DNA of 64,000 nucleotides, from the NCBI GenBank assembly GCA_049418765.1, contig JBMSJJ010000003.1, forward strand, positions 68,921 to 132,920. The letters are read 5' to 3'. This document shows positions 2,469 through 41,951 of the stretch, one piece after another. The notes under the pieces are model-generated. The model searched no databases and was not told where the DNA came from. It saw nothing but the letters and a program-made list of their open reading frames with translations. The number at the start of each line of letters is the position of its first letter. The stretch's first letter is position 1. A program made the position numbers and the translations under genes. This DNA is from Rickettsiales bacterium. Its GTDB lineage: Bacteria > Pseudomonadota > Alphaproteobacteria > Rickettsiales > UBA1997.

Positions 2469-5303
2469 TTAACTTAAAGCTTCATCAATAAAGGCTTTTT
2501 GTTCACGAGCGTGATATGACCCATAGCCAGTTGCAGGAGATGCGCAAGCAATGCGTCCAACATATTTTGCCCGAGAATTTTTGTGTTTAATTCCAATCAA
2601 AACCTCTTCAATCAACTCATTAACGAAATGCCAAGCACCCATATTTTTTGGCTCTTCTTGGCACCAAATAATTTCGGCATTAGAATATTTTTGCAATTCA
2701 GATTTAAGTTCTTTACTTGGGAATGGATAAAGTTGCTCAAGACGAATTAATGCAATATTATCAATCTTTTTAGCCTCAGACGCTTCAAGTAAATCGAAAT
2801 AAACCTTGCCTGAACATAAAATTACTTTTTTAACCTTATCGTCTTTGCATAATTTTCTAGAGTCGGCAATCAAGCTACGGAAGTTCAAATCAGTGAATTC
2901 AGCAATATTTGAAACCGCTAATTTATGACGAAGCAAAGATTTTGGCGACATTACCACCAATGGTTTACGGTCTTTACTATGAATTTGACGACGCAAAGCG
3001 TGAAAGAAATTTGCTGGGTTGGTGATATTTACCACTCTTAAATTATTATCCGCACATGATTGTAAATAGCGTTCAAGACGTGCAGATGAATGCTCTGGCC
3101 CTTGTCCTTCAAAACCATGAGGCAATAACATTACTAAACCTGATTTGCGAAGCCATTTCACTTCCGAAGAGGCTACGAATTGGTCAAAAATAATTTGGGC
3201 ACCATTGGCAAAATCACCAAATTGAGCTTCCCAAATCGTTAAAGCATTTGGAGCGGAAAGGGAATAGCCATATTCAAATCCCATAACTCCATATTCCGAA
3301 AGAACTGAGTCATAAACTTCAAATTTTGCTTTATTGGAAATAGCATTGAAAATATTGTGTCTCTTGGCATTTTTACCATCATGTAAAATAGAATGACGAT
3401 GCGAGAATGTTCCGCGTCCTGCGTCTTGACCAGTAATTCTGACATGATGACCTTCTTGAATTAAACTGGCAAATGCCAATGATTCCGCGGTTCCCCAATC
3501 AATATCAACTCCAGCTTCAACAACTTGTTTACGAGCTTCAAGTTGGCGAAGGATTTTTGGATTAGCACTAAAATCTTGCGGTAAATTAGTGGTTTTATGA
3601 ATTAATTCAATCAATGTAGATTTGTTGACTTCGGTTTTAGGATTGGAGTCGTCGCCGTCTTTGATATGCTTCCAATCGCCCTTTAACCAATCTGGCTCCA
3701 GAGCCTTAAAGCTTGACGCCTTATTAAATTCTTCATTAAGGTGAGATTCAAAATTATTGACTAGCTTTTCATATTCACCTTGAGTAATAGAATTTTCTTC
3801 AAGTAATTTTTGTGAATAAATTTTTTCCAGCGAAATATGATCTTTAATTTTATTATACATAATTGGCTGAGTATAAAGTGGCTCATCGCCCTCATTATGA
3901 CCATATTTGCGATAGCAAATTACATCAAGTACTGCATCTTTTTTAAAGGTTTGACGATATTTACTAATAATTCCAGAAATTTTTACCACCGCTTCAACAT
4001 CATCACCATTAACATGAAATATCGGGGCATCAATTGATTTTGCCAAATCTGAAGCGTAGGTTGTGCTTCTTGAATCTGAAGGATTAGCCGTAAAACCAAT
4101 TTGGTTATTGATAATAATGTGGATTACGCCTCCAGTGTCGTAGCCCGCGGTGCCATTCATCATAAGGCTTTCGGCAACTGAACCCTGCCCTGCAAATGCC
4201 GCATCACCGTGAATTAATAGTGCCAAAGCCTTAGTTCTAGATTCATCATTTAAAAGATCTTGCGAAGCGCGAACTCTTCCAGCCACAACTACATTTACCG
4301 CCTCAAGGTGCGATGGATTAAAGGCTAATGACAAGTCAATTTTATTACCATCAATTTCACGAGTTGAAGAATATCCCATATGATATTTAACATCACCAGA
4401 TTTGGTAATTCCTTCAGGAATACCGGGAGTTCCTTGAAATTCGGAGATTAAGCGGTGATAAGGCTTACCCATTACTCCAGTAAGAGTATTTAGCCTGCCT
4501 CTATGCGCCATTCCAACGATAATTTTTTTAACCCCAGCCTTTGCCGATGAATCAATAATTTTTTCTATGGCACAAATTGAAGATTCTCCACCCTCAACCG
4601 AGAATCTTTTGGCTCCAGGAAATCTTTTGTGTAAAAATTGTTCAAATCTTTCGGTGCGAATAATTTCGGCAAGAATTTTTTGCTTTTCTGACTTCGATAA
4701 TGCCGCAAAACTTGCATTCTCAACCTCTGATGCAAGCCAATCTCTTTGCTCTTGACTACGAATATATTCAAATTCACAGCCAATTTTATTGGCATAAATA
4801 TAATTTAAATTAGCGATTGCTTGCGATAATTTAATTTTATTGCCATTATAATTAACTTCTTTTTCTAGATCGGCATTGTCAATATCATTATTTTTTAAAT
4901 CAATTTCATTTACATATTGAGGAGGCGTTAAACCAAGAGGGTCAAGGTTGCAGGCCAAATGTCCAAATCTTTTATAATTTAAAATTAAATTTTGTAAGCG
5001 GATATTTAGATCTTTTCCAGCTTGAATTGCCGGAGTTTTTCCATCTTTTTTTGGCTGTTCTTTTACGGTATTTGAAGAAATATCATAATCTTGCGAACCA
5101 ATAACCTTTAAACCCCTCTTTCCCCATGATGGTCCTTGATAATCGGCAATTATTGACTTTACCTCTTCTTGATTATTAGCAAAAAAATCCGCCCAACTTT
5201 TGTCGATAGAATTTGGATTTTCTAAATATTTTTGATATAGTTCGTTTATAAAAACAATATTGGCACTAAAAAAATGAGAGCTTTGATCTAATTTTTGAGA
5301 CAT
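2469..5303 (-). CDS. sucA: 2-oxoglutarate dehydrogenase E1 component
   Basis: 944 aa. N-terminus SANIVFINELYQKYLENPNSIDKSW and the ThDP-enzyme core (RGRLNTL, GDAAFAGQG, EAQFGDFANGAQ) are typical of SucA. Confidence 0.97.
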   Translation of the reverse strand: MSQKLDQSSHFFSANIVFINELYQKYLENPNSIDKSWADFFANNQEEVKSIIADYQGPSWGKRGLKVIGSQDYDISSNTVKEQPKKDGKTPAIQAGKDLNIRLQNLILNYKRFGHLACNLDPLGLTPPQYVNEIDLKNNDIDNADLEKEVNYNGNKIKLSQAIANLNYIYANKIGCEFEYIRSQEQRDWLASEVENASFAALSKSEKQKILAEIIRTERFEQFLHKRFPGAKRFSVEGGESSICAIEKIIDSSAKAGVKKIIVGMAHRGRLNTLTGVMGKPYHRLISEFQGTPGIPEGITKSGDVKYHMGYSSTREIDGNKIDLSLAFNPSHLEAVNVVVAGRVRASQDLLNDESRTKALALLIHGDAAFAGQGSVAESLMMNGTAGYDTGGVIHIIINNQIGFTANPSDSRSTTYASDLAKSIDAPIFHVNGDDVEAVVKISGIISKYRQTFKKDAVLDVICYRKYGHNEGDEPLYTQPIMYNKIKDHISLEKIYSQKLLEENSITQGEYEKLVNNFESHLNEEFNKASSFKALEPDWLKGDWKHIKDGDDSNPKTEVNKSTLIELIHKTTNLPQDFSANPKILRQLEARKQVVEAGVDIDWGTAESLAFASLIQEGHHVRITGQDAGRGTFSHRHSILHDGKNAKRHNIFNAISNKAKFEVYDSVLSEYGVMGFEYGYSLSAPNALTIWEAQFGDFANGAQIIFDQFVASSEVKWLRKSGLVMLLPHGFEGQGPEHSSARLERYLQSCADNNLRVVNITNPANFFHALRRQIHSKDRKPLVVMSPKSLLRHKLAVSNIAEFTDLNFRSLIADSRKLCKDDKVKKVILCSGKVYFDLLEASEAKKIDNIALIRLEQLYPFPSKELKSELQKYSNAEIIWCQEEPKNMGAWHFVNELIEEVLIGIKHKNSRAKYVGRIACASPATGYGSYHAREQKAFIDEALS

Positions 5304-5419
5304 AATTTATAAATTTTTAATTTTGAAAATTCACTTAAAAAATTGGTTATTAAATTTTACACTAACCAAAATTATTTGCAACCTATGATAAAATTGAGAA
5401 GAAAGATTTGAAGGAAATA

Positions 5420-5495
5420 TGGTAGCGGAGGAGGGAATTGAACCCCCGACACGCGGATTATGATCCCGCTGCTCTACCAACTGAGCTACTCCGCC
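5420..5495 (-). tRNA. tRNA-Met (anticodon CAT); a lysidine-modified Ile2 identity cannot be excluded
   Basis: 76-nt cloverleaf read by hand: acceptor GGCGGAG/CTCCGCT, D arm GCTC..GAGC, anticodon stem GCGGG/TCCGC with loop ATCATAA, T arm GGGGG-TTCAATT-CCCTC, encoded CCA. Confidence 0.9.
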
Positions 5496-5544
5496 ATTAA
5501 TTTATGTATGTAGAAAAATATTATAAATCATAAATTAAAAAAAC

Positions 5545-7620
5545 TCAAATATTTTCTTTAGAGCGTAAATAATTGGCAAGTAAAGCTAATATATAAGCCA
5601 ATGCAATAACATAAAGTAGCTTATGATAACCATATAACATTGAACCATATTCCAACATTCCTCCAATCATTGCCCCAATCATATTATAACCAAATCCCAA
5701 GGCAGATTTCTTTTCCAATGAAAATGTTTGCGAAAAAATTAAACTTGCAAATAACATTGGCGAAAAGCTCACCAAGCAAGATAATAAGTATTTTAAAAAC
5801 CCATCATAATTGCTAAAAAAACTAATTGGAATAGCAATTGAAACCATCAATGAAATTGCCATCATAAAATATAAATTTCGCAATCTAAATTTAATTTTTA
5901 ATTTGATTATTATTGTTGAAATTAAAGCCGTTAATAAAATAGCAAGAATTACTAAAAAATTTACATCCCAAGTTGAGCCAAAAAGCAATTGAAAATTAAT
6001 TATATTTTTAGTTTCAAGCAACATAAATCCAATGCCCAGAAACAGCATATCATATGGTCTTGAATTATTTTTATAATTTGCTTTTTGCTCTTTATTTAAA
6101 TGCAAAAATAAAAATAATACCAACAATAAAATAATTTCAAAAACAACAATTTTTATATAGTTATTAGGAAATGATGGTTTTTTTAAATATAAAAATGGCC
6201 AATTATCGGTTGGAAAAAAAATTTCCGAAGATTCTTTGATAGACTTTTTTGATGTTATCGAATTAGAAATTTCAATGTTTTTAAAGTCTTTTAACTTATA
6301 GCCATTTGCAATAATGGTGAAATTTTTATTTTGATATTGAGTTACTATCGATTGCTGATTAAAAATTTCTTCTAAAATACCCGAAATTTTATCCACAATC
6401 CAATCTTGACGATAATAATTATAAAGCACAATCATGCCGTTTTCAGACAAATGTTCCTTAGCCTTAAGCAATGATTCCTTTGTATATAAATAACTTTCAA
6501 GACGAGTATTCGCTTGAGAAGATGCTAGGGTTAAAGAATCAGTAAGGGCAAAAATTATTAGGTCATATTTTTTTTGATTATTTTCTAAATAATTTCTACC
6601 GTCATTAATATTTATTTTAAGTCTTGGATCTTGGTAAGGCTTATCCAAATGATATTTAAGACCTGATTCATAAATTCTTTGATCAATTTCTACGGCATCG
6701 ACATTTTTAACATTATTTTTTAGGGCATAACTCGCATCATTTCCCATTCCAGATCCTATAATCAAAACATTTTCATATTGTGGGTTTTTAAAAAATTTGT
6801 AAGGAAAACCATACAAAATATCATGATTACTACTGAATTTTTTAGGAACAGCTTGGTGACAGCTTTTATTTACAAATAAATCTACTGAGGTTTGACTTTC
6901 CTGAATGACAATTTTATAATATTTTGTCCAAAAAATTTTATTATAACCAGATTCGATTACCCAAAAACCAAAAACACCAAAAATCATTAAAAACAATTTG
7001 TTATTTCCTTTTTTGCAGAATCGAAATTTGATTTCATCGCTAAAATAAGCTATTAACATCCATGTTAAATTAATAACGATTATCCAAAAAACAATTCCGG
7101 TTTCAAAAAATGATAAAATTGTAAAAAATAATACTCCAAATATACTGCCAGACAAATCAAATAAATAAGCATCGATACTCTTCTTAGATTTATTAAATTC
7201 AATTCCTAACATTTGCCCAAGCGGGTAAAATAAAAAGGCTATATAAATAAAAATAATTATAGTCAAAACCGCATGATTATTATTTAAAAAACTTTTATAC
7301 AAACTAGATTGATACATCACCATATCCATGGCTTCGAAATCAAAAATAATCATAGATGAGCCAGCAATAATTTGAATTACAATCAAAAACGGGAAATAAT
7401 TAAACAGGTTTTTCTTTTTATAAAACAAACAACCCAAACCAATTCCAAAAAAACATGCCATTAAAATTATATTGGAAAAAAAAGCTAAAGAAACAATCTC
7501 AGCCGACAAATACCTTATGGTTGCGAACTCGGTAAATAAAATTAAAAAACTAATTAGAAAAATTTGTAAATGATTTTTACTAAAGAGTTCAAGTTTAAAA
7601 ATATTAAGCATAAAAAACAA
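5545..7620 (-). CDS. polytopic membrane protein with embedded spermidine synthase-like (class I methyltransferase fold) domain
   Basis: 691 aa. Many hydrophobic helices flank VLIIGSGMGNDA...VDAVEIDQRI...PRLKININDGRNYL...YDLIIFALTDS, which matches the aminopropyltransferase motif layout. Confidence 0.75.
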   Translation of the reverse strand: MFFMLNIFKLELFSKNHLQIFLISFLILFTEFATIRYLSAEIVSLAFFSNIILMACFFGIGLGCLFYKKKNLFNYFPFLIVIQIIAGSSMIIFDFEAMDMVMYQSSLYKSFLNNNHAVLTIIIFIYIAFLFYPLGQMLGIEFNKSKKSIDAYLFDLSGSIFGVLFFTILSFFETGIVFWIIVINLTWMLIAYFSDEIKFRFCKKGNNKLFLMIFGVFGFWVIESGYNKIFWTKYYKIVIQESQTSVDLFVNKSCHQAVPKKFSSNHDILYGFPYKFFKNPQYENVLIIGSGMGNDASYALKNNVKNVDAVEIDQRIYESGLKYHLDKPYQDPRLKININDGRNYLENNQKKYDLIIFALTDSLTLASSQANTRLESYLYTKESLLKAKEHLSENGMIVLYNYYRQDWIVDKISGILEEIFNQQSIVTQYQNKNFTIIANGYKLKDFKNIEISNSITSKKSIKESSEIFFPTDNWPFLYLKKPSFPNNYIKIVVFEIILLLVLFLFLHLNKEQKANYKNNSRPYDMLFLGIGFMLLETKNIINFQLLFGSTWDVNFLVILAILLTALISTIIIKLKIKFRLRNLYFMMAISLMVSIAIPISFFSNYDGFLKYLLSCLVSFSPMLFASLIFSQTFSLEKKSALGFGYNMIGAMIGGMLEYGSMLYGYHKLLYVIALAYILALLANYLRSKENI

Positions 7621-7994: not shown

Positions 7995-8213
7995 ATGGAT
8001 ATTAAATCTAAAAACCTCACCATCTCTATGCCATCTGATTTATTCGTTTCTCTTGAGAAATCGGCATCAGCATTAGATAGAAGCAAAAACTATTTGGTTA
8101 GAAAATCACTTGAATTATTCTTGATCAACAACAAATTCTATCAAAAACCAATCAAAAAAATTGGCGAAATTAAACAACGCAAAAAAAGAAAAGCTGAATC
8201 TGCATCAGAGTAA
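7995..8213 (+). CDS. ribbon-helix-helix (CopG/Arc-like) small DNA-binding protein
   Basis: 72 aa. N-terminal beta-strand [10 protein letters not shown] followed by two helices ([27 protein letters not shown]) and a basic tail. No partner toxin ORF is visible. Confidence 0.5.
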
Positions 8214-10169
8214 TAACATCTTTTCAAATTTCTTAATTTGATCTCGAAGGATCACCGCTCTTTCGAAATCGAGTTCAGCTGAAGCCTCCAACATCTCCCT
8301 CTTCATCTTCTCAATATCTTCAAAAGTAATTTTCTTCTTCATATCCTTATCTTCTTCCTTCTTTTTACCATATAAATTTTCTAGATTTGAGCGAATATCT
8401 TTATAGGTAGTTTTTGGTTGAATATTATTTTTTTCATTATGTTCCATTTGAATTTTGCGTCTTCGAGCAGTTTCCGCCATGGCTTTGACAATCGATTTAG
8501 TTTCCTTATCGGCATATAATATAACTTTACTTTCTGAATTTCGCGCCGCCCGACCTATAGTTTGTATCAAAGAAGTTTCGTTGCGTAAAAAACCTTCCTT
8601 ATCCGCATCTAAAATGGCTACCAAAGCGCATTCAGGAATATCCAAACCTTCGCGAAGTAAATTTACTCCAACCAAACAATCATGTTTACCAAGTCGAAGA
8701 TTTTGTATAATTTCAATGCGGTCAAGAGTATCGACATCGGAATGCATATAAACCACATTTATTCCTTGGTCAGCAAAATAATCGGTTAAATCTTCCGCCA
8801 TTTTCTTAGTAAGAGTTGTAACCAAAGTTCGAAAGCCTTTTTCCTTAATTGCCACCACCTCTTTAAGTAAATCAGCAACTTGATTTTTTGCACTTCTAAT
8901 TTCGCAAACAGGGTCAAGAAGTCCAGTTGGACGAATGATTTGCTCAACTATCTCACCATCAGCTTTTTGCAATTCATATTTGCTTGGAGTTGCCGAAACA
9001 TAAATGGTTTGAGGCTTAAAACTCTCCCATTCACTAAATTTTAGCGGGCGGTTATCAAGGGCGCTGGGCAAACGAAATCCATGCTCAACCAATACCGATT
9101 TTCTGGCATTGTCACCTTTCGACATTCCATCAATTTGCGGAACCGAAACATGACTTTCATCAACAAATAATAATGCATTGGATGGCAAATACTCAAATAA
9201 GGTTGGCGGAGGAGACCCCGCTTCCCTTCCCGTCAAATATCTTGAATAATTTTCAATACCTTTACAACTTCCAAGGGCAACCATCAACTCCATATCGTAG
9301 GTAGTTCTTTGATTTAGGCGTTGCATTTCAACAATTTTGCCCATTTTTTCTAATTCTAATAATCGCAAATTTAAATCACTTTTTATTTTCAACAAAGCCT
9401 TTTGCACTATATCGGCAGGAGCGACATAATGCGAAGATGGATAAATGGCAATATTGTTAAATTTTTGAAAAGTCTCCCCCGTTAATGGGTCAAACTCAAC
9501 GATTTCATCAATCTCATCGCCAAACATACCAATTCGCCAAGCCTTATCCTCAAGATGCGAAGGAAAAACATCAATCACATCACCTTGCACTCGAAAATTT
9601 CCGCGCTCAAAATCCATATCATTGCGGGTATATTGCATGTCAACCAAACGCATTATCAATTTTTGTCTATTAATATTTTCACCAAGCTTGAGTCGAAGAA
9701 CCATCTCGCTATAATATTGCGGAGAGCCAATACCATAAATACAAGAAACCGAAGCAATAATTATGGTGTCTTTACGCTCGAACAAAGATCTGGTCGCATT
9801 ATGTCGAAGGCGATCAATTTGTTCATTAATCGAACTATCTTTTTCTATAAAGGTGTCGGTTTTGGCAACATAGGCTTCGGGCTGATAATAATCATAAAAT
9901 GACACAAAATAACCAACTTCATTATCTGGAAAAAATTCCTTCATCTCGCCGTAAAGCTGTGCTGCCAAAGTTTTGTTATGCGCCATAATCAAAGTTGGTC
10001 TCTGGGTTTGTTCGATAATATTTGCCATCGTAAAAGTTTTGCCAGAACCAGTGATACCGAGCAAAATTTGATCATTTTTTTTGTTATTTAATCCATTCAC
10101 CAATTTTTCAATAGCTTTGGGCTGGTCGCCAGCTGGCTGATATTTTGAATGAATTTTAAATTTGGTCAT
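8205..10169 (-). CDS. uvrB: excinuclease ABC subunit B
   Basis: 654 aa. [11 protein letters not shown], Walker [13 protein letters not shown] box, and C-terminal UVR motif [11 protein letters not shown]. Confidence 0.97.
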
Positions 10170-19469: not shown

Positions 19470-19554
19470 GCGGACGTGGCGAAATTGGCAGACGCACTAG
19501 ACTTAGGATCTAGCGCCTCACGGCATGTGGGTTCAAGTCCCTCCGTCCGCACCA
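19470..19554 (+). tRNA. tRNA-Leu (anticodon TAG), long-variable-arm class
   Basis: GCGGACG...CGTCCGCACCA acceptor. Anticodon stem CTAGA/TCTAG with loop CTTAGGA. Long variable arm, T arm GTGGGTTCAAGTCCC. Confidence 0.93.
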
Positions 19555-19588: not shown

Positions 19589-20656
19589 TTATTCTTGCGA
19601 TAATTTTTTGGCTTGATCATCAGCAACAAGAGCGTTCACGATTTCATCAAGCTCGCCCATCATAATTTCGTCAATACGATAACTCGTTAAATTAATACGA
19701 TGGTCGGTGACTCGACTTTGTGGAAAATTGTAGGTACGAATTCTTTCGCTTCTATCGCCACTTCCAACCTGCTCTTTGCGCTCCATTGCTCGCTCTCTTT
19801 CTAGGCGCTCGCGCTCTGCCTCATAAATTCTTGAACGCAAAACTTTCATGGCTTTTTCACGATTTTTAATTTGCGATTTTTCATCTTGCATCGAAACCAC
19901 CACACCTGTCGGCAAATGTGTAATTCTAACTGCCGAGTCTGTGGTATTAACCGATTGACCACCCGGACCTGATGAACGAAAAACATCAATTCGCAAATCT
20001 TTTTCTTCAATTTTAATATCAACCTCTTCAGCTTCAGGCAAAACAGCCACTGTTGCTGCCGAAGTGTGAACTCGCCCCGAAGCCTCAGTTTCTGGCACTC
20101 TTTGCACTCGATGCCCACCCGATTCAAATTTTAAACGAGCAAAAACTCCGCGACCAGAAATAATCGCAGACGCTTCTTTATAGCCTCCAAGGCCAGTATC
20201 AGAAATTGACAAAATCTCGAATTTCCAACGATTTTTTTCAGCATAGCGATGATACATTTGAAATAATTTATAGGCAAAAAGTGCCGCCTCTTCGCCTCCA
20301 GTGCCTGCCCTAACCTCAATGATGGCGTTTTTTTCATCGGCTGAATCCTTAGGAATTAAGGCAATTTTAATTTGATGCTCAAGATCTGGAATTTTTTTTG
20401 ACAAATTGAATTTTTCCTCCTCCATCATATCACGCATTTCCTTGTCTAGGGAAGAGTCGGTGAGCATTTGCTCGATATCGACATATTCTTTTTGTGCATT
20501 TTGATATTCGTGAATTATCCCCACAACTTCTTGCATATCGGAATGTTCTTTAGAAATTTTGGCGAAGCTTTGCCCCAAGCCAGTTGGGTCTTGAAGCTTT
20601 TTTTCTAATTCATTAAATTTAGCAACAATGCCCGAAAGTTTTTCTGTAATCGACAT
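19589..20656 (-). CDS. prfA: peptide chain release factor 1
   Basis: 355 aa. PET/PxT-type recognition region ([14 protein letters not shown]) and GGQ motif ([24 protein letters not shown]). Confidence 0.97.
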
Positions 20657-20686
20657 ATTATTTTTTATTTTTACTTTTTGTTTTGG

Positions 20687-21394
20687 TTAGTTTTTGATAA
20701 AATCTTTTAAGAATTTTTTTATATTATTGAATTCTTTGTGATCATAATTAATAAACTTTTTATTAAACTTTGCCGATGCCTCTCTTTGAGCTAGAGTAGC
20801 AATATCTTTAACGGTTTTAAATTCTTTTTTAGAAATTTGGGTTGATAATAAAGCCTGAATAACATTTTTAGGTTTAGCATCTTTTAAATCGCAACATTTG
20901 AAAAATTTAGGAATACAATTTTTAAGAATCTCTTTGTATTCTTTATTATCAAGTGATTTTAAAATTAGAGTTTCTAAATCTGGCTTAAGCAAATCAATCG
21001 AAATTGAAATGGTTATCGGTTTAGTTGATTTTGAGCTTAATGTAATGCCACCGTTTAAAATTATAAAATTAATATCGTTATTTTCTTTATTTAATTTTTC
21101 TATATCTTTAATAATTTCCTTAAATCTATTTTTTTCTCCATCTTCGTCAAAAATAATTGCTAAATTTCTAACATTTTTTTTAAAATTACTATCTTTGATA
21201 ATCATCTTTAATGATTTATCACCCGACCCAAAAATACCCGATATACCGCCTACCTCATGAACATAAATCTTGTCGTCAATTTCCAATTTTTTTAAAAAAG
21301 AAACTATAAATTCTAAATCATCTTTACCTTCTACCAAAATGGCATGTTTGTATTGGAATGGGTCAGGTCTTTGTTTTTTCAAACTCTTTGTCAT
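20687..21394 (-). CDS. Toprim-like nuclease partner (DUF4435/DUF4276/DUF3226-type), AriB-like
   Basis: 235 aa. N-terminal AILVEGKDDLEFI (Toprim Glu) and downstream LAIIFDEDGE (DxD). Lies 4 nt downstream of the ATPase gene on the same strand. Confidence 0.6.
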   Translation of the reverse strand: MTKSLKKQRPDPFQYKHAILVEGKDDLEFIVSFLKKLEIDDKIYVHEVGGISGIFGSGDKSLKMIIKDSNFKKNVRNLAIIFDEDGEKNRFKEIIKDIEKLNKENNDINFIILNGGITLSSKSTKPITISISIDLLKPDLETLILKSLDNKEYKEILKNCIPKFFKCCDLKDAKPKNVIQALLSTQISKKEFKTVKDIATLAQREASAKFNKKFINYDHKEFNNIKKFLKDFIKN

Positions 21395-21398
21395 AATT

Positions 21399-22520
21399 TT
21401 AACGGATTTCGTAGTGATTGTCGATCATTGTTTCAAGCTCTTCTTGAGAGATTGTGGTTTGCAAAATTTTATCATCAAATTTTTCTAATCTTACAATTTG
21501 AAATAAATCTTCATATTCATCTTTAAGGGCAATTTTACTGATATTTTTCAAACAATCATAAGAATGGGTTGTGGTAAAAAGCTGGATATTATATTCTTCG
21601 CATAATTTAATAATTTGTTCCCAGAATAAATCTTGCTTATCGTGATATAAACCATTATCAATTTCATCGATACATAGGATTTTAAACTTGTCTAATCTTT
21701 TACCCATTATCTCTGCTGTGATCAAGATATCGAAAAACTTTTTAAAACCATTTCCCATATTTGAAAAGTTAGTATCATAACCTTCGCTTTTAAAAAATAA
21801 TAAATCATCACCCACAAATCTAATGGTTATTATTTTTGGATCAAATTTTTGTGATAATTTTATGTATTTTTCTTCGGATTTAAGTCCCATTTCAACAATT
21901 CTATTCCACTTGCTAGCAACTTCCTTTGTACTTGGAATATTATCAAATAAAAGCTCAATATCATACTCTTCAAAGTTTTCAATAGATAATTTTCCAGTTC
22001 CCATATTGCTAAAACCAATTTGAGCACTTATTTTTTTATAATTATAATCAACGATGAAGGTTTTATAATCTTCTTTAAAAAGTGCCCGATCTTCTATGCC
22101 GTATCGCCTTATAGCATCTCTATTTGAAAAAATTTCCTCTTTTGAAATTGACATAGAAACATCAATTTTTGAATCATTCAATTCTGACGATATTTGAATT
22201 TTATTTAAATTATCTTTTTTCTTATAAAACAAATATTCAAGCTTAGAAAATGCAAATCTACCAGTTCTAATTCCTATCATATCCGAGTCTCTGTAGGCAA
22301 TAGATTCTCTGGATTGAATAATACCCATATAATTTCTTACAGTTGGATACAACATCCCAACCGCCTCTAGCACACTGCTCTTGCCCGAATTATTATCACC
22401 AACGAAAATATTCACTCTTTTTAAATCTTTAAGGTGAAAATTTTCAAAGCAACGGAAATTTTTAATCGTCAAATTTTTTAATAAAGGCTTGCTAATTTTT
22501 TTGGTTTTTTTCTGCACCAT
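21399..22520 (-). CDS. AAA_15/AAA_21-type ABC ATPase (OLD/AriA-like)
   Basis: 373 aa. IKNFRCFENF...VGDNNSGKSSVLEAV (Walker A), MGNGFKKFF (signature-like), ILCIDEIDNGL (Walker B), FTTTHS (H-loop). Confidence 0.8.
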   Translation of the reverse strand: MVQKKTKKISKPLLKNLTIKNFRCFENFHLKDLKRVNIFVGDNNSGKSSVLEAVGMLYPTVRNYMGIIQSRESIAYRDSDMIGIRTGRFAFSKLEYLFYKKKDNLNKIQISSELNDSKIDVSMSISKEEIFSNRDAIRRYGIEDRALFKEDYKTFIVDYNYKKISAQIGFSNMGTGKLSIENFEEYDIELLFDNIPSTKEVASKWNRIVEMGLKSEEKYIKLSQKFDPKIITIRFVGDDLLFFKSEGYDTNFSNMGNGFKKFFDILITAEIMGKRLDKFKILCIDEIDNGLYHDKQDLFWEQIIKLCEEYNIQLFTTTHSYDCLKNISKIALKDEYEDLFQIVRLEKFDDKILQTTISQEELETMIDNHYEIR

Positions 22521-22575
22521 AGCTTTTATATTAAATTTTCTAATTTAAGATTGATTTGCTTTTAAGCAAAAATTA

Positions 22576-22635
22576 TTAGGAAGTTCGACCTTAGGAAGTT
22601 CAACCTTAGGAAGTTCAACCTTAGGAAGTTCAACT
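22576..22635. repeat. tandem repeat, 4 copies of 15 bp (TTAGGAAGTTCAACC)
   Basis: Read directly: copy 1 has one mismatch (G for A), copies 2 and 3 are identical, copy 4 has one terminal mismatch. Sits between the divergent ATPase gene and metG. Confidence 0.92.
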
Positions 22636-22713
22636 CTAGAAATCTCTATTAATCGCAATTTTACTAGCTTAAGAGTATAATAGCAATAATTTTTTAAACA
22701 ATTTTCAAAGTCT

Positions 22714-24252
22714 ATGTCGTCAAATTTTTATGTAACTTCGCCGATTTATTATGTCAATGATGTTCCGCATATCGGTCATGCCTATACTTCGATTGCCTGC
22801 GACACTATGGCAAGGTTTGAGCGCTTAAAATCGCACCGAGTTTTTTTCTTAACTGGTACTGACGAACATGGGCAAAAGGTAGAGAAATCAGCGCTCGCCA
22901 AAGGTAAAACTCCACAAGAATTTTGCGACGAAGTTTCGCAAAAATTTCGTGAACTCACCACAACTCTTAATCTATCCAATGATGATTTTATTCGCACCAC
23001 CGATGAGCGTCACAAAAAAACTGTGGAAAAATTTTGGAATATTTTATTGCAAAATGGCTTTATTTATAAAGATATTTACGAAGGTTGGTATGCCGTTCGC
23101 GACGAAGCATTTTACAGTGCCGACGAAATTATTGATGGCAAAGCACCAACTGGTGCCGAAGTGACATGGCACCGCGAAGAAAGCTATTTCTTCCGTCTCT
23201 CGGCTTTTCAAGAAAAATTACTAGCTCTTTACGAAGCGGTGCCAGACTTTATTCGTCCCAATTCTCGCTACAATGAAATTGTGAATTTTGTCAAATCTGG
23301 CTTGAAGGATTTATCAATCTCGCGCACCTCATTTTCGTGGGGAATTAAAGTGCCAAATGACGAAAAACATGTGATTTATGTCTGGCTTGACGCCCTGACC
23401 AACTATCTCTCTGCCCTTGATTTTGCTGATAATTCTAGCAATTACCAAGATTTTTGGGTTAATGCAAACAACTCGCCACTTCATATTGTTGGCAAAGATA
23501 TTGTGCGCTTTCATGCCGTTTACTGGCCAGCCTTTTTGATGGCTTGCAACATTAATGTTCCTTATGGAATATATGCTCATGGTTGGTGGACAAATGATGG
23601 TCAAAAAATTTCTAAATCTTTGGGCAATGTGATTGACCCACATGCTGAAATTGCTTGGATTGAGAGTTTTGGTTGCCAAAAGGCAACCGCCAATGATTAT
23701 TTTCGCTATTTTTTACTGCGCGAAGTGCCATTTGGCAATGATGGCGACTATTCAAGAGTAAATTTAGCAACTCGAATTAATGCCGAACTCGCCAACAATA
23801 TCGGCAATTTAGCACAACGAAGCTTGGCGATGATTTATAAAAATTGCGAGGGCAAAATTCCTGCAGGCATCGAACATGCCATCTCTCACCTTGAACCTTT
23901 TAGCGAAAATTATTTCAAAAATTTCAATGATTTAGCTTTTGACAAAGCCATTCAAGCCGTGATCGACTTTGCCAATTTAGTCAATAAAAATTTCAACGAC
24001 ACAGCCCCTTGGAATTTAATGAAGCAAGGCAAAATTGCCGAGATGCACAAATCTCTTCACGAAACCGCCGAGAGCCTGCGTTTAATTGCAATTTTATTAT
24101 TGCCTTTTGTGCCCGTCAGTGCCAATAAAATTTTGGATTTATTGAATATCGAAAATTCCGCTCGCAATTTTGCCCACCTCACCCACACCCTTAAGGCTCA
24201 ACATCAAATCAACGAGCCCAAGGCAGTATTTCCAAGGCTTGAGAGTAGGTAA
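22714..24252 (+). CDS. metG: methionine--tRNA ligase (short form without C-terminal tRNA-binding domain)
   Basis: HIGHAY (HIGH motif), KISKSLGN (KMSKS motif), typical anticodon-binding helical C-terminus. Confidence 0.96.
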   Translation: MSSNFYVTSPIYYVNDVPHIGHAYTSIACDTMARFERLKSHRVFFLTGTDEHGQKVEKSALAKGKTPQEFCDEVSQKFRELTTTLNLSNDDFIRTTDERHKKTVEKFWNILLQNGFIYKDIYEGWYAVRDEAFYSADEIIDGKAPTGAEVTWHREESYFFRLSAFQEKLLALYEAVPDFIRPNSRYNEIVNFVKSGLKDLSISRTSFSWGIKVPNDEKHVIYVWLDALTNYLSALDFADNSSNYQDFWVNANNSPLHIVGKDIVRFHAVYWPAFLMACNINVPYGIYAHGWWTNDGQKISKSLGNVIDPHAEIAWIESFGCQKATANDYFRYFLLREVPFGNDGDYSRVNLATRINAELANNIGNLAQRSLAMIYKNCEGKIPAGIEHAISHLEPFSENYFKNFNDLAFDKAIQAVIDFANLVNKNFNDTAPWNLMKQGKIAEMHKSLHETAESLRLIAILLLPFVPVSANKILDLLNIENSARNFAHLTHTLKAQHQINEPKAVFPRLESR

Positions 24253-25002: not shown

Positions 25003-25677
25003 TTACAAAATCTCAAGCACGAAAGATGCAAAAATACCGATTAAAGAGGGAAAGGTTGTTTCTATCAAAACATGTCTCCACCGATTTATTTTAATAAATC
25101 TCTCCTCGGATTTTTTTATAATACTTTCAAAAGTTCTCCAAATTTCTTTATTATAATTTTCATATTCTGCCTCAATTATTTTTAATTCCTCTTCGATTTC
25201 TTCAATTTTTTCTAATTTTACTTTTTCTAATTTTTTTCTTATTTCTTCAGTTCTTTTTCTCATTATCGATATTTGTAAATTCCACCAAATCGCAATCTTT
25301 GTATTCTCAAATACTTTTTTTTCAAATCTCATCTTATCAACCTTCTCTTGCATGATGGTTGCAAGATACTTATGATGGTATGCAACAAAATGATCATGCG
25401 CCAACCACATGAAGTGAATTAAATGATAACAAACAATCCAAAGCAAAAAAAGGTCTATCATCTCGTGATCTATATGATCAAATTCCAAACCTAAAAAAGA
25501 AAATTTACCAGTTAAAGTTGCGCCGCTTAATTTATAAAACAGTGCAATCACCGAAAAAATTAATAAATTTCTTCTAACGCGAAGAGTATTTTCATCAAAA
25601 TTTTCAAATCTTGAATATTTATCAACTTTAGCAGAATATTTTTGTTTAGATATATCCAATTCTTTATTCTCACTCAT
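25003..25677 (-). CDS. hypothetical membrane protein with central coiled coil
   Basis: 224 aa. Two N-terminal hydrophobic helices, a His-rich stretch (HFMWLAHDHFVAYHHKY), a K/E-rich coiled coil and a C-terminal hydrophobic helix. No family recognised. Confidence 0.5.
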   Translation of the reverse strand: MSENKELDISKQKYSAKVDKYSRFENFDENTLRVRRNLLIFSVIALFYKLSGATLTGKFSFLGLEFDHIDHEMIDLFLLWIVCYHLIHFMWLAHDHFVAYHHKYLATIMQEKVDKMRFEKKVFENTKIAIWWNLQISIMRKRTEEIRKKLEKVKLEKIEEIEEELKIIEAEYENYNKEIWRTFESIIKKSEERFIKINRWRHVLIETTFPSLIGIFASFVLEIL

Positions 25678-29593: not shown

Positions 29594-30715
29594 ATGAAAA
29601 CAAAAAATTTAGAAAATATCTCAAACATTTCTCAAGCAGAAATTATTGACAATATCCAATTGATTCGCTCTGAAAATATTGGTCCGATTACCTATTATAA
29701 AATTCTAGAAAAATTTGGCACTGCCAGAAATGCCATAGAAAATTTTAATGAGGTCAGCAAAATTAACAATCGCCATGTAAAATTATGCAATCGCCTCAAC
29801 GCCGAGAGAGAATTTGAGCTAACCGAAAAATTTGGCGCTAAAATCATTCTTCACAGCGACCCTAATTACCCAAAATTGCTCAAAGAAATTAGCGATGCCC
29901 CACCAATTATTTCAGTTAAGGGCGATTTAGAATTACTCAATGGCGAAAAAATCGCAGTTGTTGGACCTCGCAATGCATCGCATAATGCAATTTCATATGC
30001 CAAAAAATTTGCTTTGCTTCTTGGACAAAGTTCAATCGTTAGTGTTTCTGGAATGGCACGAGGAGTTGATACCGCAGTTCATGAAGCCTCAATTTTAAGC
30101 GGAACAATCGCAGTTTTAGCGGGCGGAATTAACAATATTTACCCACATGAAAACACCAAATTATATCATCAAATTGCCGATTGTGGTTTAGTTTTGTCTG
30201 AAATGTCTTTTGGCTTCGAACCAAAAGGTTCAAATTTTTTACAAAGAAATCGACTAATTTCTGGCTTATCTGTTGCCACCGTAATTATTGAAGCGGGTCT
30301 TCAATCTGGCAGTTTGGCAACCGCCAAACATGCAATGGAACAAAATCGCGAAGTATTTGCAGTTCCTGGCTCGCCCTTTGACCCAAGATGCCAAGGCACC
30401 AATCGCTTAATTAAAGATGGAGCAAATATTATCACTGAGGTTGAAGATATTTTAAATTCTACATCGAAAAAAAATCACCTCATGAAAAAAGCTTCAACAA
30501 TTTCCAAAATCAAAAAAGATTATAATTTTTCCAATGACGAGATTGGCGTTGCTGGCGAAGAAATCCTTAACAAATTAAACACCGAACCAACCAATATTGA
30601 TTTTCTAATTTCGCAACTGCAAATCCCCATCAACCTATTTAACACAGCGGTTATGGAGCTTGAGCTTTACAATAAGGTTGCAGTAAATTATGGCAAAATT
30701 ATGAAGCTGGTTTAG
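29594..30715 (+). CDS. dprA: DNA-processing protein DprA
   Basis: 373 aa. Rossmann-like core VVGPRNAS...SGMARGVDTAVHEA...RNRLISGLS...VIIEAGLQSGSLATA. Confidence 0.9.
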   Translation: MKTKNLENISNISQAEIIDNIQLIRSENIGPITYYKILEKFGTARNAIENFNEVSKINNRHVKLCNRLNAEREFELTEKFGAKIILHSDPNYPKLLKEISDAPPIISVKGDLELLNGEKIAVVGPRNASHNAISYAKKFALLLGQSSIVSVSGMARGVDTAVHEASILSGTIAVLAGGINNIYPHENTKLYHQIADCGLVLSEMSFGFEPKGSNFLQRNRLISGLSVATVIIEAGLQSGSLATAKHAMEQNREVFAVPGSPFDPRCQGTNRLIKDGANIITEVEDILNSTSKKNHLMKKASTISKIKKDYNFSNDEIGVAGEEILNKLNTEPTNIDFLISQLQIPINLFNTAVMELELYNKVAVNYGKIMKLV

Positions 30716-38738: not shown

Positions 38739-39571
38739 ATTTTTCAGCCAAAGCCACAACTAAACTTCCAAAAATTATCGGCATTCTCAACATCACTCCA
38801 GATTCTTTCAGCGATAGCGGAAAATTTTATCAAGAAGAAAATGCAATCAATCATTTAGAAAAATTATTGCAAGAAGGAGCCGATATTATTGACATAGGCG
38901 CAGAATCAACTCGTCCAAATAGTCAAATTTTAAGCGCTAAAGAAGAAATTGATAGGCTAAAAAATATTTTACCAAAAATTAGCAGAAATGTCGAAGAATT
39001 TAACAAAGCTAATAAAAAAAATATAATGGTTAGTATCGACACTTATCATTACGAAACCTTAGTTTTTGCTCATCAAAATGGAGTCAATATTGCCAATGAT
39101 GTGAGTGGATTAATCGACAAAAACATCATTAAATATATTGCCAAAAATAATCTTATGGCAGTTTTAATGCATAATTTATCTATTCATGCCAATCCAAATA
39201 TCATCATTAATCGCGAATTAAATGTTTTTGACGAAATTTGCTCTTGGACCAAAGAGAAATTACAAATTTTGGAACAAGAAAATATCAAAAAATCGCAAAT
39301 AATTTTCGACCCTGGAATCGGCTTTTCTAAAAACGCCAAACAATCTTTGCGTATTATAAAAAATATTCAATCATACCAAATTTTGGGCATGAAAATAATG
39401 GTTGGACATTCCAAAAAAAGTTTTTTAGATGAATTAAAAATTCCAAAGAATCCAAATTTAAATCGCGATGAAAAAACTCTAATTCTTTCAAAATATTTGG
39501 CGAAAAAAAATGTTGATTACCTTCGACTTCATGATGTTTATGGCAATATTCAGGCTATTTTAAATCAATAA
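38732..39571 (+). CDS. folP: dihydropteroate synthase
   Basis: ILNITPDSFSDSGKF, DIGAESTRP, DPGIGFSK, GHSKKSF. Confidence 0.92.
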   Translation: MVNFSAKATTKLPKIIGILNITPDSFSDSGKFYQEENAINHLEKLLQEGADIIDIGAESTRPNSQILSAKEEIDRLKNILPKISRNVEEFNKANKKNIMVSIDTYHYETLVFAHQNGVNIANDVSGLIDKNIIKYIAKNNLMAVLMHNLSIHANPNIIINRELNVFDEICSWTKEKLQILEQENIKKSQIIFDPGIGFSKNAKQSLRIIKNIQSYQILGMKIMVGHSKKSFLDELKIPKNPNLNRDEKTLILSKYLAKKNVDYLRLHDVYGNIQAILNQ

Positions 39572-41951
39572 TAATATTTTCTCTGTTTAAAAAATCATGA
39601 TTTTCAATAATACCAAGGTTAGAAAATTTATTAACGCATTTTGGAAGTTTATATTTTTTGGAGAAATTTACCACCATCCTATATTTTTTTAAAAATTTTT
39701 TTTGACAAATTTTAGAAATTTTTAAGCGGTTTTTTACCACCAAAAACAATTTATTTTCAATTTTTAATTCTTCATATTTTTTAAAATTTTTTTTACATAT
39801 ACTCAAATTATTATTGCAATTTTTAATCAAGTTAAAGCTATTTTGATTAAAGGAATGAAGCCATCTTGCAACCTGCTTGGTGCCTTTATTTTCTTTAGAG
39901 AAATATAATTTATTATTTAAAAAAACCGCATAAAATTTTTGCGATTTTTCAAAAATTATTTGATTTTTTGCTGGAGAAAAAGCACTCAAAATCAAAGCCA
40001 AAAAGCCTATAACAAAAAAAATTTTTAAGCAATTATTTCTGCTAATACAAAAAAAAGCCAAAAGCAGTAAACAACCTGCCAAAGCATGATTTTCAAGATA
40101 TGGGGTTGGCAAATAACTAAATTGGAAATTTGCAAAATAATCCGCAATTTTTATGAAAAAATTTAAAGCGAATTTTAATAAAAATAATGGCAAAATTTGT
40201 GCGTTACAAATCATCAATAAAAGAGCCAAAAAACTCAAAGGCATTACTATAAAACTAACGAAGGGAATGGCAATCAAATTGGCAAGAAAGCCACTCAAAC
40301 TTACAGTTTGAAAGTTATTCATAATAACTGGCAGTGTTGCAATCTGGATTGCCAGTGTAAGAAAAAAAATCTCCATAAAATATAATCTTATTTTACTTAA
40401 AAAGCCTGTGATGAATTTTTCTTCCAATCCCAAATTTGCATCTGGAAAAATTTTTAGACGCCAATTTTGATAATAACAGACTATAATTAAAACTGCCGAA
40501 AAGGATAATAAAAAACTCACTTGAAAAATCGCTAAAGGATTGATTAAAATCAAAATAATTAATGCAAAAAACAGCGCTCTTATTGCATTAAATTTGCTAT
40601 CAAAAATCAGGGCAAACATTGCTAGCCAAACCATAATTAAAGCCCTTTGCGCTGGAATTGGTGCATCAGCAATTTTTAAGTAAATAAAGCTGGCACAAAT
40701 GGCAAAAATTGCCGAAATTTTTTTTATATCAAATCGCAAGGCAATGTATTCAATATTTGCCAATAAAAATCTGATGCTTACAAAAAAAATCGCACTTGCT
40801 AATGACAAATGAAAACCCGAAATCGAAAGCAAATGCGAAAGGCCTGACTTACGAATATTTTGCAATAAATCATTAGCAATAAATTTTTGATCACCAATCA
40901 ATAATGCAATAGCAATTGAAGCTGAGCTGGGCGGTAAATACTCCTTTATTTTTTGCGAAATAATTAGCCTTTTTTGCAAAATATACTCGTCAAAATTATT
41001 AATTTTTTGACGCTGAATAATTTGTGGAAATTTAATAAAATAACCAAATGCACCTATATTTTTAGCCATTGCATCGAATTTTGGATTAAAATTTTTTTTA
41101 AATTCTTGTTTCGAAATCGGTGAAATTAAAGCATTAAAATTAATTAAATCATTTATTTGATATTGACCTGAATATTTACTCAAAATTAGACTCATTTTTG
41201 TTGGCGGATTTTCTAGGATTGAATCTTGATTTTTAATAATCCAAGGCGGTTGGTTATAGAATTTTTTATAATCAATAAATTGCCTATCAATTTCCAAATA
41301 ATTATTTACATTTAGGTAATTTTTATAAATTTTTTTGGCAATTTTCTTAAGTTTTTTTGATGAATTTTTAGATTTTTTTAAAATTTTCTTTGCAAATTTT
41401 TTTGAATTTTTGGTTTTTTTCTTTTTTGGTTTTTTGGATTTTTGAAATTTCTTAACAGCCTTTTTATTTGGCAAAAATTCCATTTTTTTCAACTCAAGAT
41501 TCTTTAGTAAAATATTAGCTCCAACCAGCCGAGTCTGGCTATTATAAAATGGCTTAATATCTATAATTTTTGCAGTCGAATTTATATAAAATTTATGTTC
41601 ATAATATTTGTCTTTACTAAAATAATGAAAATAAATTTTGCCATAAAAAATTCCTAAAATAAAAATTATTAATGCCTTTAACAAAATATTTTCACCCAAC
41701 CAAAAACTCAATAAACAAATTATTAAAACATAAATAAAAATTAAAATAATAACAGGAAAAAATTTATCACAATTCGCTTGAAAATACAGATAATAAGAGG
41801 TTCCAGCGATGAAAATTACAATCGAATAAAAGAAATAATTGGTAATTTCTTGCTGAAGAATTTCGGAGCGAAAAAAATTATTTTTGAAAACTAAAAAAAA
41901 CCTTGCAAAAAGGTCGAGGAAGTTAGAATAGGATTTTTGGGTTCGCATCAA
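39555..41951 (-). CDS. comEC: ComEC/Rec2 DNA internalisation channel protein
   Basis: 798 aa. Competence-domain motif RKSGLSHLLSISGFHLSL and many TM helices. I see no HxHxDH metallo-beta-lactamase motif in the C-terminal ~150 aa. Confidence 0.88.
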   Translation of the reverse strand: MMRTQKSYSNFLDLFARFFLVFKNNFFRSEILQQEITNYFFYSIVIFIAGTSYYLYFQANCDKFFPVIILIFIYVLIICLLSFWLGENILLKALIIFILGIFYGKIYFHYFSKDKYYEHKFYINSTAKIIDIKPFYNSQTRLVGANILLKNLELKKMEFLPNKKAVKKFQKSKKPKKKKTKNSKKFAKKILKKSKNSSKKLKKIAKKIYKNYLNVNNYLEIDRQFIDYKKFYNQPPWIIKNQDSILENPPTKMSLILSKYSGQYQINDLINFNALISPISKQEFKKNFNPKFDAMAKNIGAFGYFIKFPQIIQRQKINNFDEYILQKRLIISQKIKEYLPPSSASIAIALLIGDQKFIANDLLQNIRKSGLSHLLSISGFHLSLASAIFFVSIRFLLANIEYIALRFDIKKISAIFAICASFIYLKIADAPIPAQRALIMVWLAMFALIFDSKFNAIRALFFALIILILINPLAIFQVSFLLSFSAVLIIVCYYQNWRLKIFPDANLGLEEKFITGFLSKIRLYFMEIFFLTLAIQIATLPVIMNNFQTVSLSGFLANLIAIPFVSFIVMPLSFLALLLMICNAQILPLFLLKFALNFFIKIADYFANFQFSYLPTPYLENHALAGCLLLLAFFCISRNNCLKIFFVIGFLALILSAFSPAKNQIIFEKSQKFYAVFLNNKLYFSKENKGTKQVARWLHSFNQNSFNLIKNCNNNLSICKKNFKKYEELKIENKLFLVVKNRLKISKICQKKFLKKYRMVVNFSKKYKLPKCVNKFSNLGIIENHDFLNRENIIIDLK

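Follow-up and report, generated by a model that had tools for sequence, protein, structure and literature searches.

The window analysed here, a 64,000-nucleotide stretch of a Rickettsiales bacterium genome (contig JBMSJJ010000003.1), carries between prfA and metG two adjacent minus-strand genes, which encode an ATP-binding cassette (ABC) ATPase and a Toprim-type protein of the DUF3226 family. The pair is probably a two-gene OLD-like conflict cassette of the PDC-M38 subtype, in which the ABC ATPase is accompanied by a separate Toprim nuclease, and which occupies one slot where it is swapped by recombination through the flanks. This reading draws on what was observed in the window and its relatives, namely the domain identities of both proteins, the conservation of the catalytic residues, a presence/absence polymorphism of the pair, the sharp boundaries of the variable segment and the discordant divergence of cassette and flanks. 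The kind of system is already known, since PADLOC hidden Markov models (HMMs) exist for the subtype; it is neither PARIS nor categorically new.

The ATPase and its DUF3226 partner

The ATPase open reading frame (ORF) lies at 21399..22520 on the minus strand (373 aa; AAA_15/AAA_21 type) and is the putative sensor or regulator subunit, and the DUF3226 ORF lies at 20687..21394 on the same strand (235 aa; Toprim plus helical domain) and is the candidate nuclease effector. A 4-nt operon junction spacer separates them (21395..21398, minus strand; stop codon and gap between the ORFs). An initial annotation had described two co-oriented genes of these sizes, 4 nt apart and placed between prfA and metG, which was confirmed, the strand being minus. 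All the motifs it had cited were also found: NFRCF (residues 21-25), the Walker A motif GDNNSGKSS (41-49), the Walker B motif CIDEIDNGL (283-291) and the H-loop TTTHS (316-320) in the ATPase, and AILVEGKDDLEFI (residues 18-30) and IIFDEDGE (80-87) in the partner. The order of ATPase followed by DUF3226, with overlapping or near-abutting genes, is kept in all related loci, and the two ORFs are always separate.

In a profile search, the first gene product was matched by the Pfam families AAA_15 (6.4e-21) and AAA_21 (2e-19), in agreement with the ABC ATPase originally proposed. Two PADLOC models matched it over their full length, AbiLi (PDLC02336, 2.5e-49, model positions 2-340 of 340) and PDC-M38A (PDLC04611, 2.6e-45, model positions 2-383 of 383), and each of them also matched 17 of 17 ATPase homologs, with a best value of 8.7e-78 for PDC-M38A. 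The AriA models of PADLOC reached 1.6e-21, far under AbiLi and PDC-M38A, and the NCBIfam MAD3 model gave a weak match (9.6e-8), far below its cutoff. Additionally, the RecF model TIGR00611 reached 46.8 bits, where its cutoff is 172, covering residues 14-58 only, and Rad50 models matched weakly and N-terminally. Among the 17 homologs, with identities down to 23%, the Walker A residues G41, G46 and K47, the signature residues G256 and G258, the D285-E286 pair and T317-T318-H319 are invariant. The AlphaFold (AF2) model of the ATPase (pLDDT confidence score, 84; predicted TM-score, pTM, 0.87) contains an insert that is mostly beta-strand, without a long coiled coil. Its best fold match was the Thermus OLD protein (6P74, 1.5e-12), followed by Gabija GajA, retron/Septu PtuA and Rad50 heads, and AriA structures were not found within the top 50 matches.

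The second gene product was matched over its full length by Pfam DUF3226 (1.4e-13), a family of modest size, with 2034 clusters (50% identity) in a set of 1.84 billion representatives. Like the AAA_15 and AAA_21 values of the ATPase, this match is well outside what chance would give. The PADLOC model PDC-M38B (PDLC04623) matched it at 5.3e-7 (model positions 3-217 of 219) and recognised 19 of 20 partner homologs (best 3.4e-12). The MADS mad4 model, which spans the N-terminal Toprim core only (~90 residues), matched 16 of the 20 (best 1.3e-6), OLD-like_TOPRIM gave weak matches in 14 (best 3.2e-4), and AbiLii and the Pfam family RloB touched one member each (0.0058 and 0.009, respectively). For the partner itself, no match to DUF4435 (Pfam), AriB or AbiLii (both PADLOC) was obtained at E<=1, and none of the 20 family members matched AriB at E<=0.01. 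Searches of the partner against NCBIfam and PHROGs returned no match, and comparison of its sequence with the PDB, singly and as a profile, gave nothing meaningful.

The conservation pattern and the predicted structure place the partner more precisely. Across 73 members sharing 20-40% identity, E22, G23, D83, E141 and K176 do not vary, and D26, D85, C160 and C167 are invariant within the clade, the family consensus of the DxD motif being DAD. In the AF2 model (pLDDT 85, pTM 0.83), a helical domain comes after the beta-alpha Toprim core, and the top four Foldseek matches of the model were class 2 OLD C-terminal catalytic regions (6NJV/6NK8, probability 0.97-0.98), followed by topoisomerase II Toprim domains. 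The Toprim-type assignment of the second gene was thus upheld by the conserved Glu and DxD residues, by the OLD-like_TOPRIM matches and by the fold matches. In the Burkholderia OLD nuclease, it was established by mutagenesis that cleavage involves two metals, with E400, D455 and D457 binding metal A and E404 and E508 binding metal B; E508 is located in the first helix of the helical domain, and K562 is the helical-domain lysine (PMC6755086). The partner residues E22, D26, D83, D85, E141 and K176 follow the order of E400, E404, D455, D457, E508 and K562 of that enzyme, in matching secondary-structure elements, E141 being at the start of the first post-Toprim helix and K176 within the helix 175-186. 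This correspondence, drawn from the alignment and the predicted model, suggests that the six residues constitute an OLD-like catalytic set.

The pair was also found outside this clade. It is present, in the order ATPase-then-DUF3226 and with overlapping or near-abutting genes, in Nostoc and in another phylum. In a distant genome of 45% GC (L007), an AAA_21+DUF4276 pair is found 1.5 kb from an ATPase+DUF3226 pair (4669-6476 and 8001-9670) inside a glycosyltransferase/polysaccharide cluster, so that two split-OLD-type pairs stand side by side. An ATPase-anchored scan combined with an HMM search of the neighbouring ORFs detected the pair on five IMG/VR viral contigs; in a scan of the IMG/VR viral contigs with alignment A2, no partner was confirmed by tblastn. 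A tblastn search of the GenBank phages with the ATPase returned two partial matches only. On the IMG/VR contig L101 (4983-6691, 8864-9793), an AbiEii toxin gene (5.5e-39) lies ~2 kb away from the pair, which also has a 693-aa amidase-domain protein in its vicinity. Because the pair recurs in unrelated settings, the ATPase and the DUF3226 gene form a conserved two-gene unit, with defence-typical neighbours. As a separate observation, the arrangement on L101 resembles a small cluster of defence genes carried by a phage or prophage.

A variable slot between metG and prfA

Related loci were gathered with prfA as the anchor. In the window, prfA (release factor 1; 19589..20656, minus strand) forms the right flank of the pair and metG (methionyl-tRNA synthetase; 22714..24252, plus strand) the left flank; PCRF/RF-1 and tRNA-synt_1g domains, respectively, are found in the homologous loci, and identity across the compared loci is 78-100% for prfA and 65-98% for metG. 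The closest genomes by prfA are freshwater Rickettsiales-like alphaproteobacterial metagenome-assembled genomes (MAGs), one of these relatives having a 1.52-Mb contig, and the nearest named genus is Candidatus Megaera, with a prfA 66% identical. The genes metG and prfA are divergent neighbours in every locus with a prfA at least 78% identical. In six species (L010, L011, L012, L014, L016 and L017) the site is empty, with 75-349 nt between metG and prfA and no trace of the pair, and one of them, L010, has a prfA 92% identical. The direct adjacency of the two genes in these six related species bears out the accessory insertion put forward by the initial annotation. At least nine independent loci are occupied (the window, L001, L003, L004, L006, L013, L015, L051 and L090), always with the pair co-oriented with prfA, and the DUF3226 gene ends 30 nt or 1-3 nt before prfA or overlaps it by 10 nt.

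Cassette and flanks have diverged discordantly. Between the window and L003, L004 and L006, metG is 79-84% and prfA 87-89% identical, whereas the ATPase is 37-42% and the partner 27% or less. L013 compared with L003 and L004 shows 97-99% identity in metG and 98-99% in prfA, against 47-50% in the ATPase and 29-32% in the partner; compared with the window, the same locus shows 84% in metG, 86% in prfA, 80% in the ATPase and 66% in the partner. Thus, the L013, L003 and L004 hosts are near-identical, yet the L013 cassette resembles that of the more distant window host. When L013 and L004 are aligned at the DNA level, metG and the intergenic region are 93-100% identical; between the start of the ATPase gene and the stop of the partner gene the value drops to 31-74%, and in prfA it is back at 98%. 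The intergenic region upstream of the cassette is 95-100% identical among L013, L003 and L004 despite their different cassettes. For the pair L006 and L012, about the first 100 nt next to metG align at the boundary, and the remaining AT-rich spacer is unalignable. The GC content is 27% in the cassette and ~40% in the flanks.

Synonymous divergence (dS) departs from that of the flanks in both directions. It is 0.96-1.4 in the cassette and 0.14-0.29 in the flanks between L013 and L004, 0.35 in the ATPase alone against 0.11-0.16 in the flanks between the window and L001, and 0.32 in the partner alone against 1.0-1.3 in the flanks between L004 and L006. L004 is a mosaic, its ATPase being nearest to that of L003 (70%) and its partner nearest to that of L006 (76%). 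The cassette is thus exchanged between lineages both whole and by halves, its limits coinciding with the gene ends. These patterns fit replacement by homologous recombination through the conserved flanks. The ratio of nonsynonymous to synonymous divergence (dN/dS) is 0.11-0.47 in the cassette where dS is <1, a sign of purifying selection, and 0-0.10 in the flanks; the L013-L004 partner comparison gives 0.79, at a dS near saturation. Since both genes are intact in all occupied loci and dN/dS is <1, the cassette genes are functional, under relaxed or diversifying pressure.

The variation is concentrated within one part of the ATPase. Around 70 distinct 90%-identity clusters of the clade ATPase were present in metagenomes (P0020-P0089), mostly on contigs of 1-5 kb, which fits a hypervariable locus breaking assemblies. 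Over 69 clade ATPase alleles, mean pairwise column identity was 0.15-0.43 at residues ~61-150 and 0.7-0.99 in the blocks 21-60 and 281-320. The variable segment, placed after the Walker A motif (22071..22340, minus strand), may be the region that recognises or senses the trigger, judging from the alignment. Additionally, some ATPase alleles are themselves mosaics in which the ends are conserved and the middle is exchanged; P0030, for example, has window-like ends and a P0034-like middle.

Regarding the possibility that conserved core synteny betrays a housekeeping role, which the initial annotation had raised against its own proposal, the objection is half borne out: the pair keeps its position throughout a deep clade. 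The content of the slot, however, is hypervariable and in many cases missing, and this speaks against such a role.

Two observations concern the records of these genomes. In L092 (GCA_002359655.1, 7701-8682), the prfA that follows the cassette is called as two ORFs of 52 and 266 aa; L090 and L091, with an identical partner protein, have an intact 354-aa prfA, and the split in L092 is probably a sequencing frameshift. The MAGs L012, L013, L015 and L017 are publicly labelled 'Rickettsia typhi', although their prfA is only 79-89% identical to that of the window and their content is of the metG/ilvD free-living type; this label looks like a mis-assignment.

Classification, proposed mechanism and alternatives

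By its profile matches, the pair is of the PDC-M38 type (ABC ATPase with DUF3226) and not PARIS, because PDC-M38B is matched by 19/20 partners and PDC-M38A by 17/17 ATPases, with AriB at 0/20. Of the 'PARIS-like/split-OLD' label first given to it, the combination of an ATPase with a separate Toprim protein in an accessory insertion was retained, and membership in the PARIS family was not, in view of the missing DUF4435/AriB match and the far lower AriA scores. As in PDC-M38, both HMMs were matched over their full length, with the same gene order and adjacency; PDC-M38, however, was defined inside BREX, DISARM and type I restriction-modification (RM) loci, whereas the pair described here stands between two translation genes, in the probable prfA operon.

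Other known systems share parts of this organisation. The AbiLi model of the lactococcal AbiL system (AbiLi/AbiLii) is the best single PADLOC match of the ATPase, and AbiLii is a predicted Toprim/OLD-type nuclease with a structural match to 6NJV (PMC13064643), which is also the top match of the partner here. However, the AbiL partner is AbiLii/RloB-like and not DUF3226, and AbiL is plasmid-borne in Firmicutes. The OLD proteins (class 1 of P2 and Thermus, class 2 of Burkholderia and Xanthomonas) and GajA provide the nearest solved folds, and their metal-binding acids and helical-domain lysine have putative counterparts in the partner, but in these proteins ATPase and Toprim are fused in one polypeptide, whereas here they are encoded by two genes; moreover, the class 2 OLD proteins work with a UvrD-like helicase and GajA with GajB, and no helicase is found here. 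MADS resembles the pair through MAD3 and MAD4, the mad4 model being matched by most partner homologs and MAD3 weakly by the ATPase, and differs in that no methyltransferase or other MADS genes are located near the pair.

In the proposed mechanism, the ATPase would hold the Toprim nuclease inactive, by analogy with PARIS, OLD and Gabija (PMC11464382, PMC6755086, PMC13064643), and its hypervariable insert would watch for an infection cue. Once the cue is perceived, ATP binding or hydrolysis would release or activate the nuclease, which may then cleave nucleic acid by a two-metal reaction, with E22, D83 and D85 coordinating metal A, D26 and E141 coordinating metal B, and K176 acting as a general acid or stabiliser. 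Such cleavage, of DNA or RNA, would halt the phage or the infected cell, giving the cassette a function in defence. OLD cuts DNA, AriB tRNA and RNase M5 rRNA, with an active-site layout that is common to them (PMC11464382, PMC6755086, PMC13064643). The cassette would occupy one fixed slot, spliced between prfA and its promoter region, and it would be exchanged, replaced or deleted via homologous recombination in metG or prfA and not by an integrase. Recombination in the flanks is plausible because ComEC (Competence domain, 3.5e-58; 39555-41951, minus strand) and DprA (DNA_processg_A, 6.4e-70; 29594-30715, plus strand) are encoded in the same window; the organism probably possesses natural-transformation machinery, which would provide a route for cassette swaps between metG and prfA.

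Several points weigh against this proposal. PDC-M38 is one of 145 PADLOC candidates derived from genes embedded in BREX, DISARM and type I RM loci, and was called untested by its authors (10.1101/2024.01.29.577857); a literature search for DUF3226 or PDC-M38 returned zero papers, and no experimental study of a DUF3226 system was found. The OLD-like_TOPRIM matches of the partner fall below the Pfam gathering threshold, and its fold match to OLD is moderate (TM 0.37-0.45, E about 2e-3). The partner had no match in the GenBank phages and PLSDB plasmids at tblastn sensitivity, and no known defence or mobile-element genes occur near the pair within the 64-kb window. Finally, the high divergence of the cassette could partly reflect relaxed constraint rather than an arms race.

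Among the alternatives, a selfish, toxin-antitoxin (TA)-like addiction cassette has the most to recommend it, although it is rather unlikely. According to this explanation, loss of the cassette would be harmful through the toxicity of the nuclease and through the lost prfA promoter, and there would be no net anti-phage benefit. PARIS itself acts as a type II TA pair (PMC13064643), and the insertion of the cassette between prfA and its upstream region, with a gap of <=30 nt or an overlap and no terminator, as well as the lack of defence-island neighbours in the clade, would suit an addiction element. Nevertheless, the clean empty sites in six species imply that loss is tolerated, pure addiction does not predict variation focused in the putative sensing insert, and viral contigs carry distant relatives, in one case beside AbiEii. 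Addiction is compatible with defence and with a TA logic like that of PARIS, but defence accounts better for the tolerated loss and for the concentration of variation in the insert. A pair with a housekeeping task in DNA repair or linked to translation, made of a RecF/Rad50-like ATPase and a nuclease and conserved in the prfA operon, would agree with the position beside prfA that is conserved across the clade (prfA 78-100% identical), with the weak N-terminal RecF and Rad50 matches and with the likely co-transcription with prfA. It is very unlikely, however, given that the pair is absent from six related species, L010 included, that the cassette is 37-50% identical between hosts whose flanks are 79-99% identical, that the RecF match stays so far below its cutoff and within residues 14-58, and that the discordant dS indicates lateral exchange.

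A true PARIS system, in which a hexamer of AriA senses anti-restriction proteins and frees AriB to cleave tRNA-Lys, is less probable still. The layout is the same, in that the ABC ATPase (AAA_15/21) comes first and the Toprim effector is a polypeptide of its own, the AriA models do match the ATPase, and AbiL and MADS3-4 have been grouped with PARIS as ABC+Toprim systems (PMC11464382); by analogy, the logic of a sensor ATPase and a sequestered nuclease would likely be shared (PMC11464382). On the other hand, AriB is a DUF4435 protein, and neither such a match nor an AriB match was obtained for the partner or its 20 family members at the thresholds given above, whereas AbiLi and PDC-M38A score much higher than AriA. 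Both proteins are shorter than AriA (53-55 kDa) and AriB (35 kDa) (PMC11464382), as the initial annotation had stated, the differences being ~100 and 65 aa. Furthermore, AriA carries the coiled-coil inserts IS1 and IS2 that build its hexamer, whereas the 373-aa ATPase has a mostly beta-strand insert without a long coiled coil and is nearer in fold to OLD, GajA and PtuA than to AriA, which is outside its top 50 folds. The least credible explanation, to which almost no weight can be given, is that the pair is left over from an old insertion, no longer functional and in decay. The low GC content of 27% and the high amino-acid divergence would be in line with decay, but both ORFs are intact in every occupied locus with dN/dS <1, the catalytic residues of both proteins are invariant, and no frameshifts or lost residues were seen.

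Integrase-free hotspots between core genes are represented by the core defence hotspots of Pseudomonas and by the pneumococcal capsule locus between dexB and aliA. These share with the metG-prfA slot a fixed position, divergent or empty cargo and exchange by homologous recombination in the flanks, but they carry diverse cargo, whereas in the slot described here all the cargo consists of versions of the same two-gene system, spliced in directly before an essential gene, in a genome of ~1.5 Mb. An extension of the OLD-like cassette reading, for which we would claim only a tentative standing, is that the metG-prfA junction constitutes an integrase-free 'immune allele' locus, where many deeply divergent alleles and a null allele of one cassette, tied into the operon of the essential release-factor gene, would be kept under phage-driven balancing selection and cassettes or half-cassettes would be moved between species by natural transformation and by homologous recombination in the conserved flanks. 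If this were true, a single defence system in a streamlined ~1.5 Mb genome would show trans-species polymorphism.

The analysis corrects the label of the pair to the DUF3226/PDC-M38 branch and supplies a catalytic hypothesis, with E22, D26, D83, D85, E141 and K176 as the candidate residues. What is unusual is the setting: the slot lies between two translation genes, is free of integrases and holds a single system; the alleles found in near-identical hosts are deeply divergent and include a null allele; and the cassette is spliced into the probable prfA operon of a genome of ~1.5 Mb. The locus offers a natural experiment on the turnover of putative immunity genes without integrases in small genomes poor in mobile elements, and it could reveal which part of an ABC-ATPase sensor, possibly residues 61-150, faces diversifying pressure. 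Additionally, a putative nuclease cassette lodged between an essential gene and the likely promoter of that gene is an uncommon arrangement, one that could stabilise the cassette.

Surroundings of the cassette

The divergent intergenic region between the ATPase gene and metG (22521..22713, 193 nt) is the likely promoter site for the ATPase, DUF3226 and prfA genes. It contains one promoter-like site on the minus strand (22686-22658); promoter-like sites were not enriched over shuffles, and no promoter was assigned. The 30 nt between the DUF3226 stop and the prfA start (20657..20686, minus strand) contain no terminator-like site. A conserved internal prfA promoter in the 3' end of the DUF3226 gene was considered and found unsupported, since this end is no better conserved in DNA sequence than the remainder of the cassette. 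Since neither a terminator nor a conserved internal promoter precedes prfA, this gene is probably co-transcribed with the cassette, from the upstream region of the cassette.

The same intergenic region contains four copies of a 15-bp tandem repeat, GGTTGAACTTCCTAA on the coding strand (22576..22635, minus strand), 56 nt upstream of the ATPase start codon. The array obtained a Tandem Repeats Finder (TRF) score of 111 (x3.9 copies, 22576-22634), and its unit gave 4 matches against 0.10 expected, a number that was reached in 0 of 100 shuffles; the rest of the window lacks this unit. L001/L002, which carry a 90%-identical allele, have two degenerate copies, and the other loci have none. The repeat was therefore rejected as a conserved regulatory element, being confined to the window and L001/L002, and it may reflect expression tuning or neutral slippage. 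A tRNA-Leu(tag) gene (19470..19554) lies on the far side of prfA from the pair and is specific to the lineage of the window and L001; as an integration target it was likewise rejected, since prfA separates it from the cassette and the other occupied loci lack it. For these reasons, the reading of the tRNA gene and of the tandem repeat as signs of a defence islet was not sustained. A search for att-like direct or inverted repeats flanking the cassette returned only short AT-rich chance pairs, and no integrase or transposase gene flanks it.

Further minor observations were made in the window and its relatives. Between metG and ilvD, a 224-aa ORF without a Pfam match is found at 25003-25677 on the minus strand, and at the same place L001 carries a 155-aa unannotated ORF (5077-5544), its ilvD and metG being 98% identical; this interval is possibly another small site of variation. 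GC content within the window is lowest at 6-8 kb (23%) and at 50-52 kb (27%). These stretches hold a 691-aa protein in which only a spermidine-synthase-like domain was recognised (5545-7620, minus strand) and an ankyrin-repeat protein (49665-50375, plus strand). A 668-aa ankyrin protein is also encoded downstream of prfA in L003, and the ankyrin proteins hint at a host-associated lifestyle.

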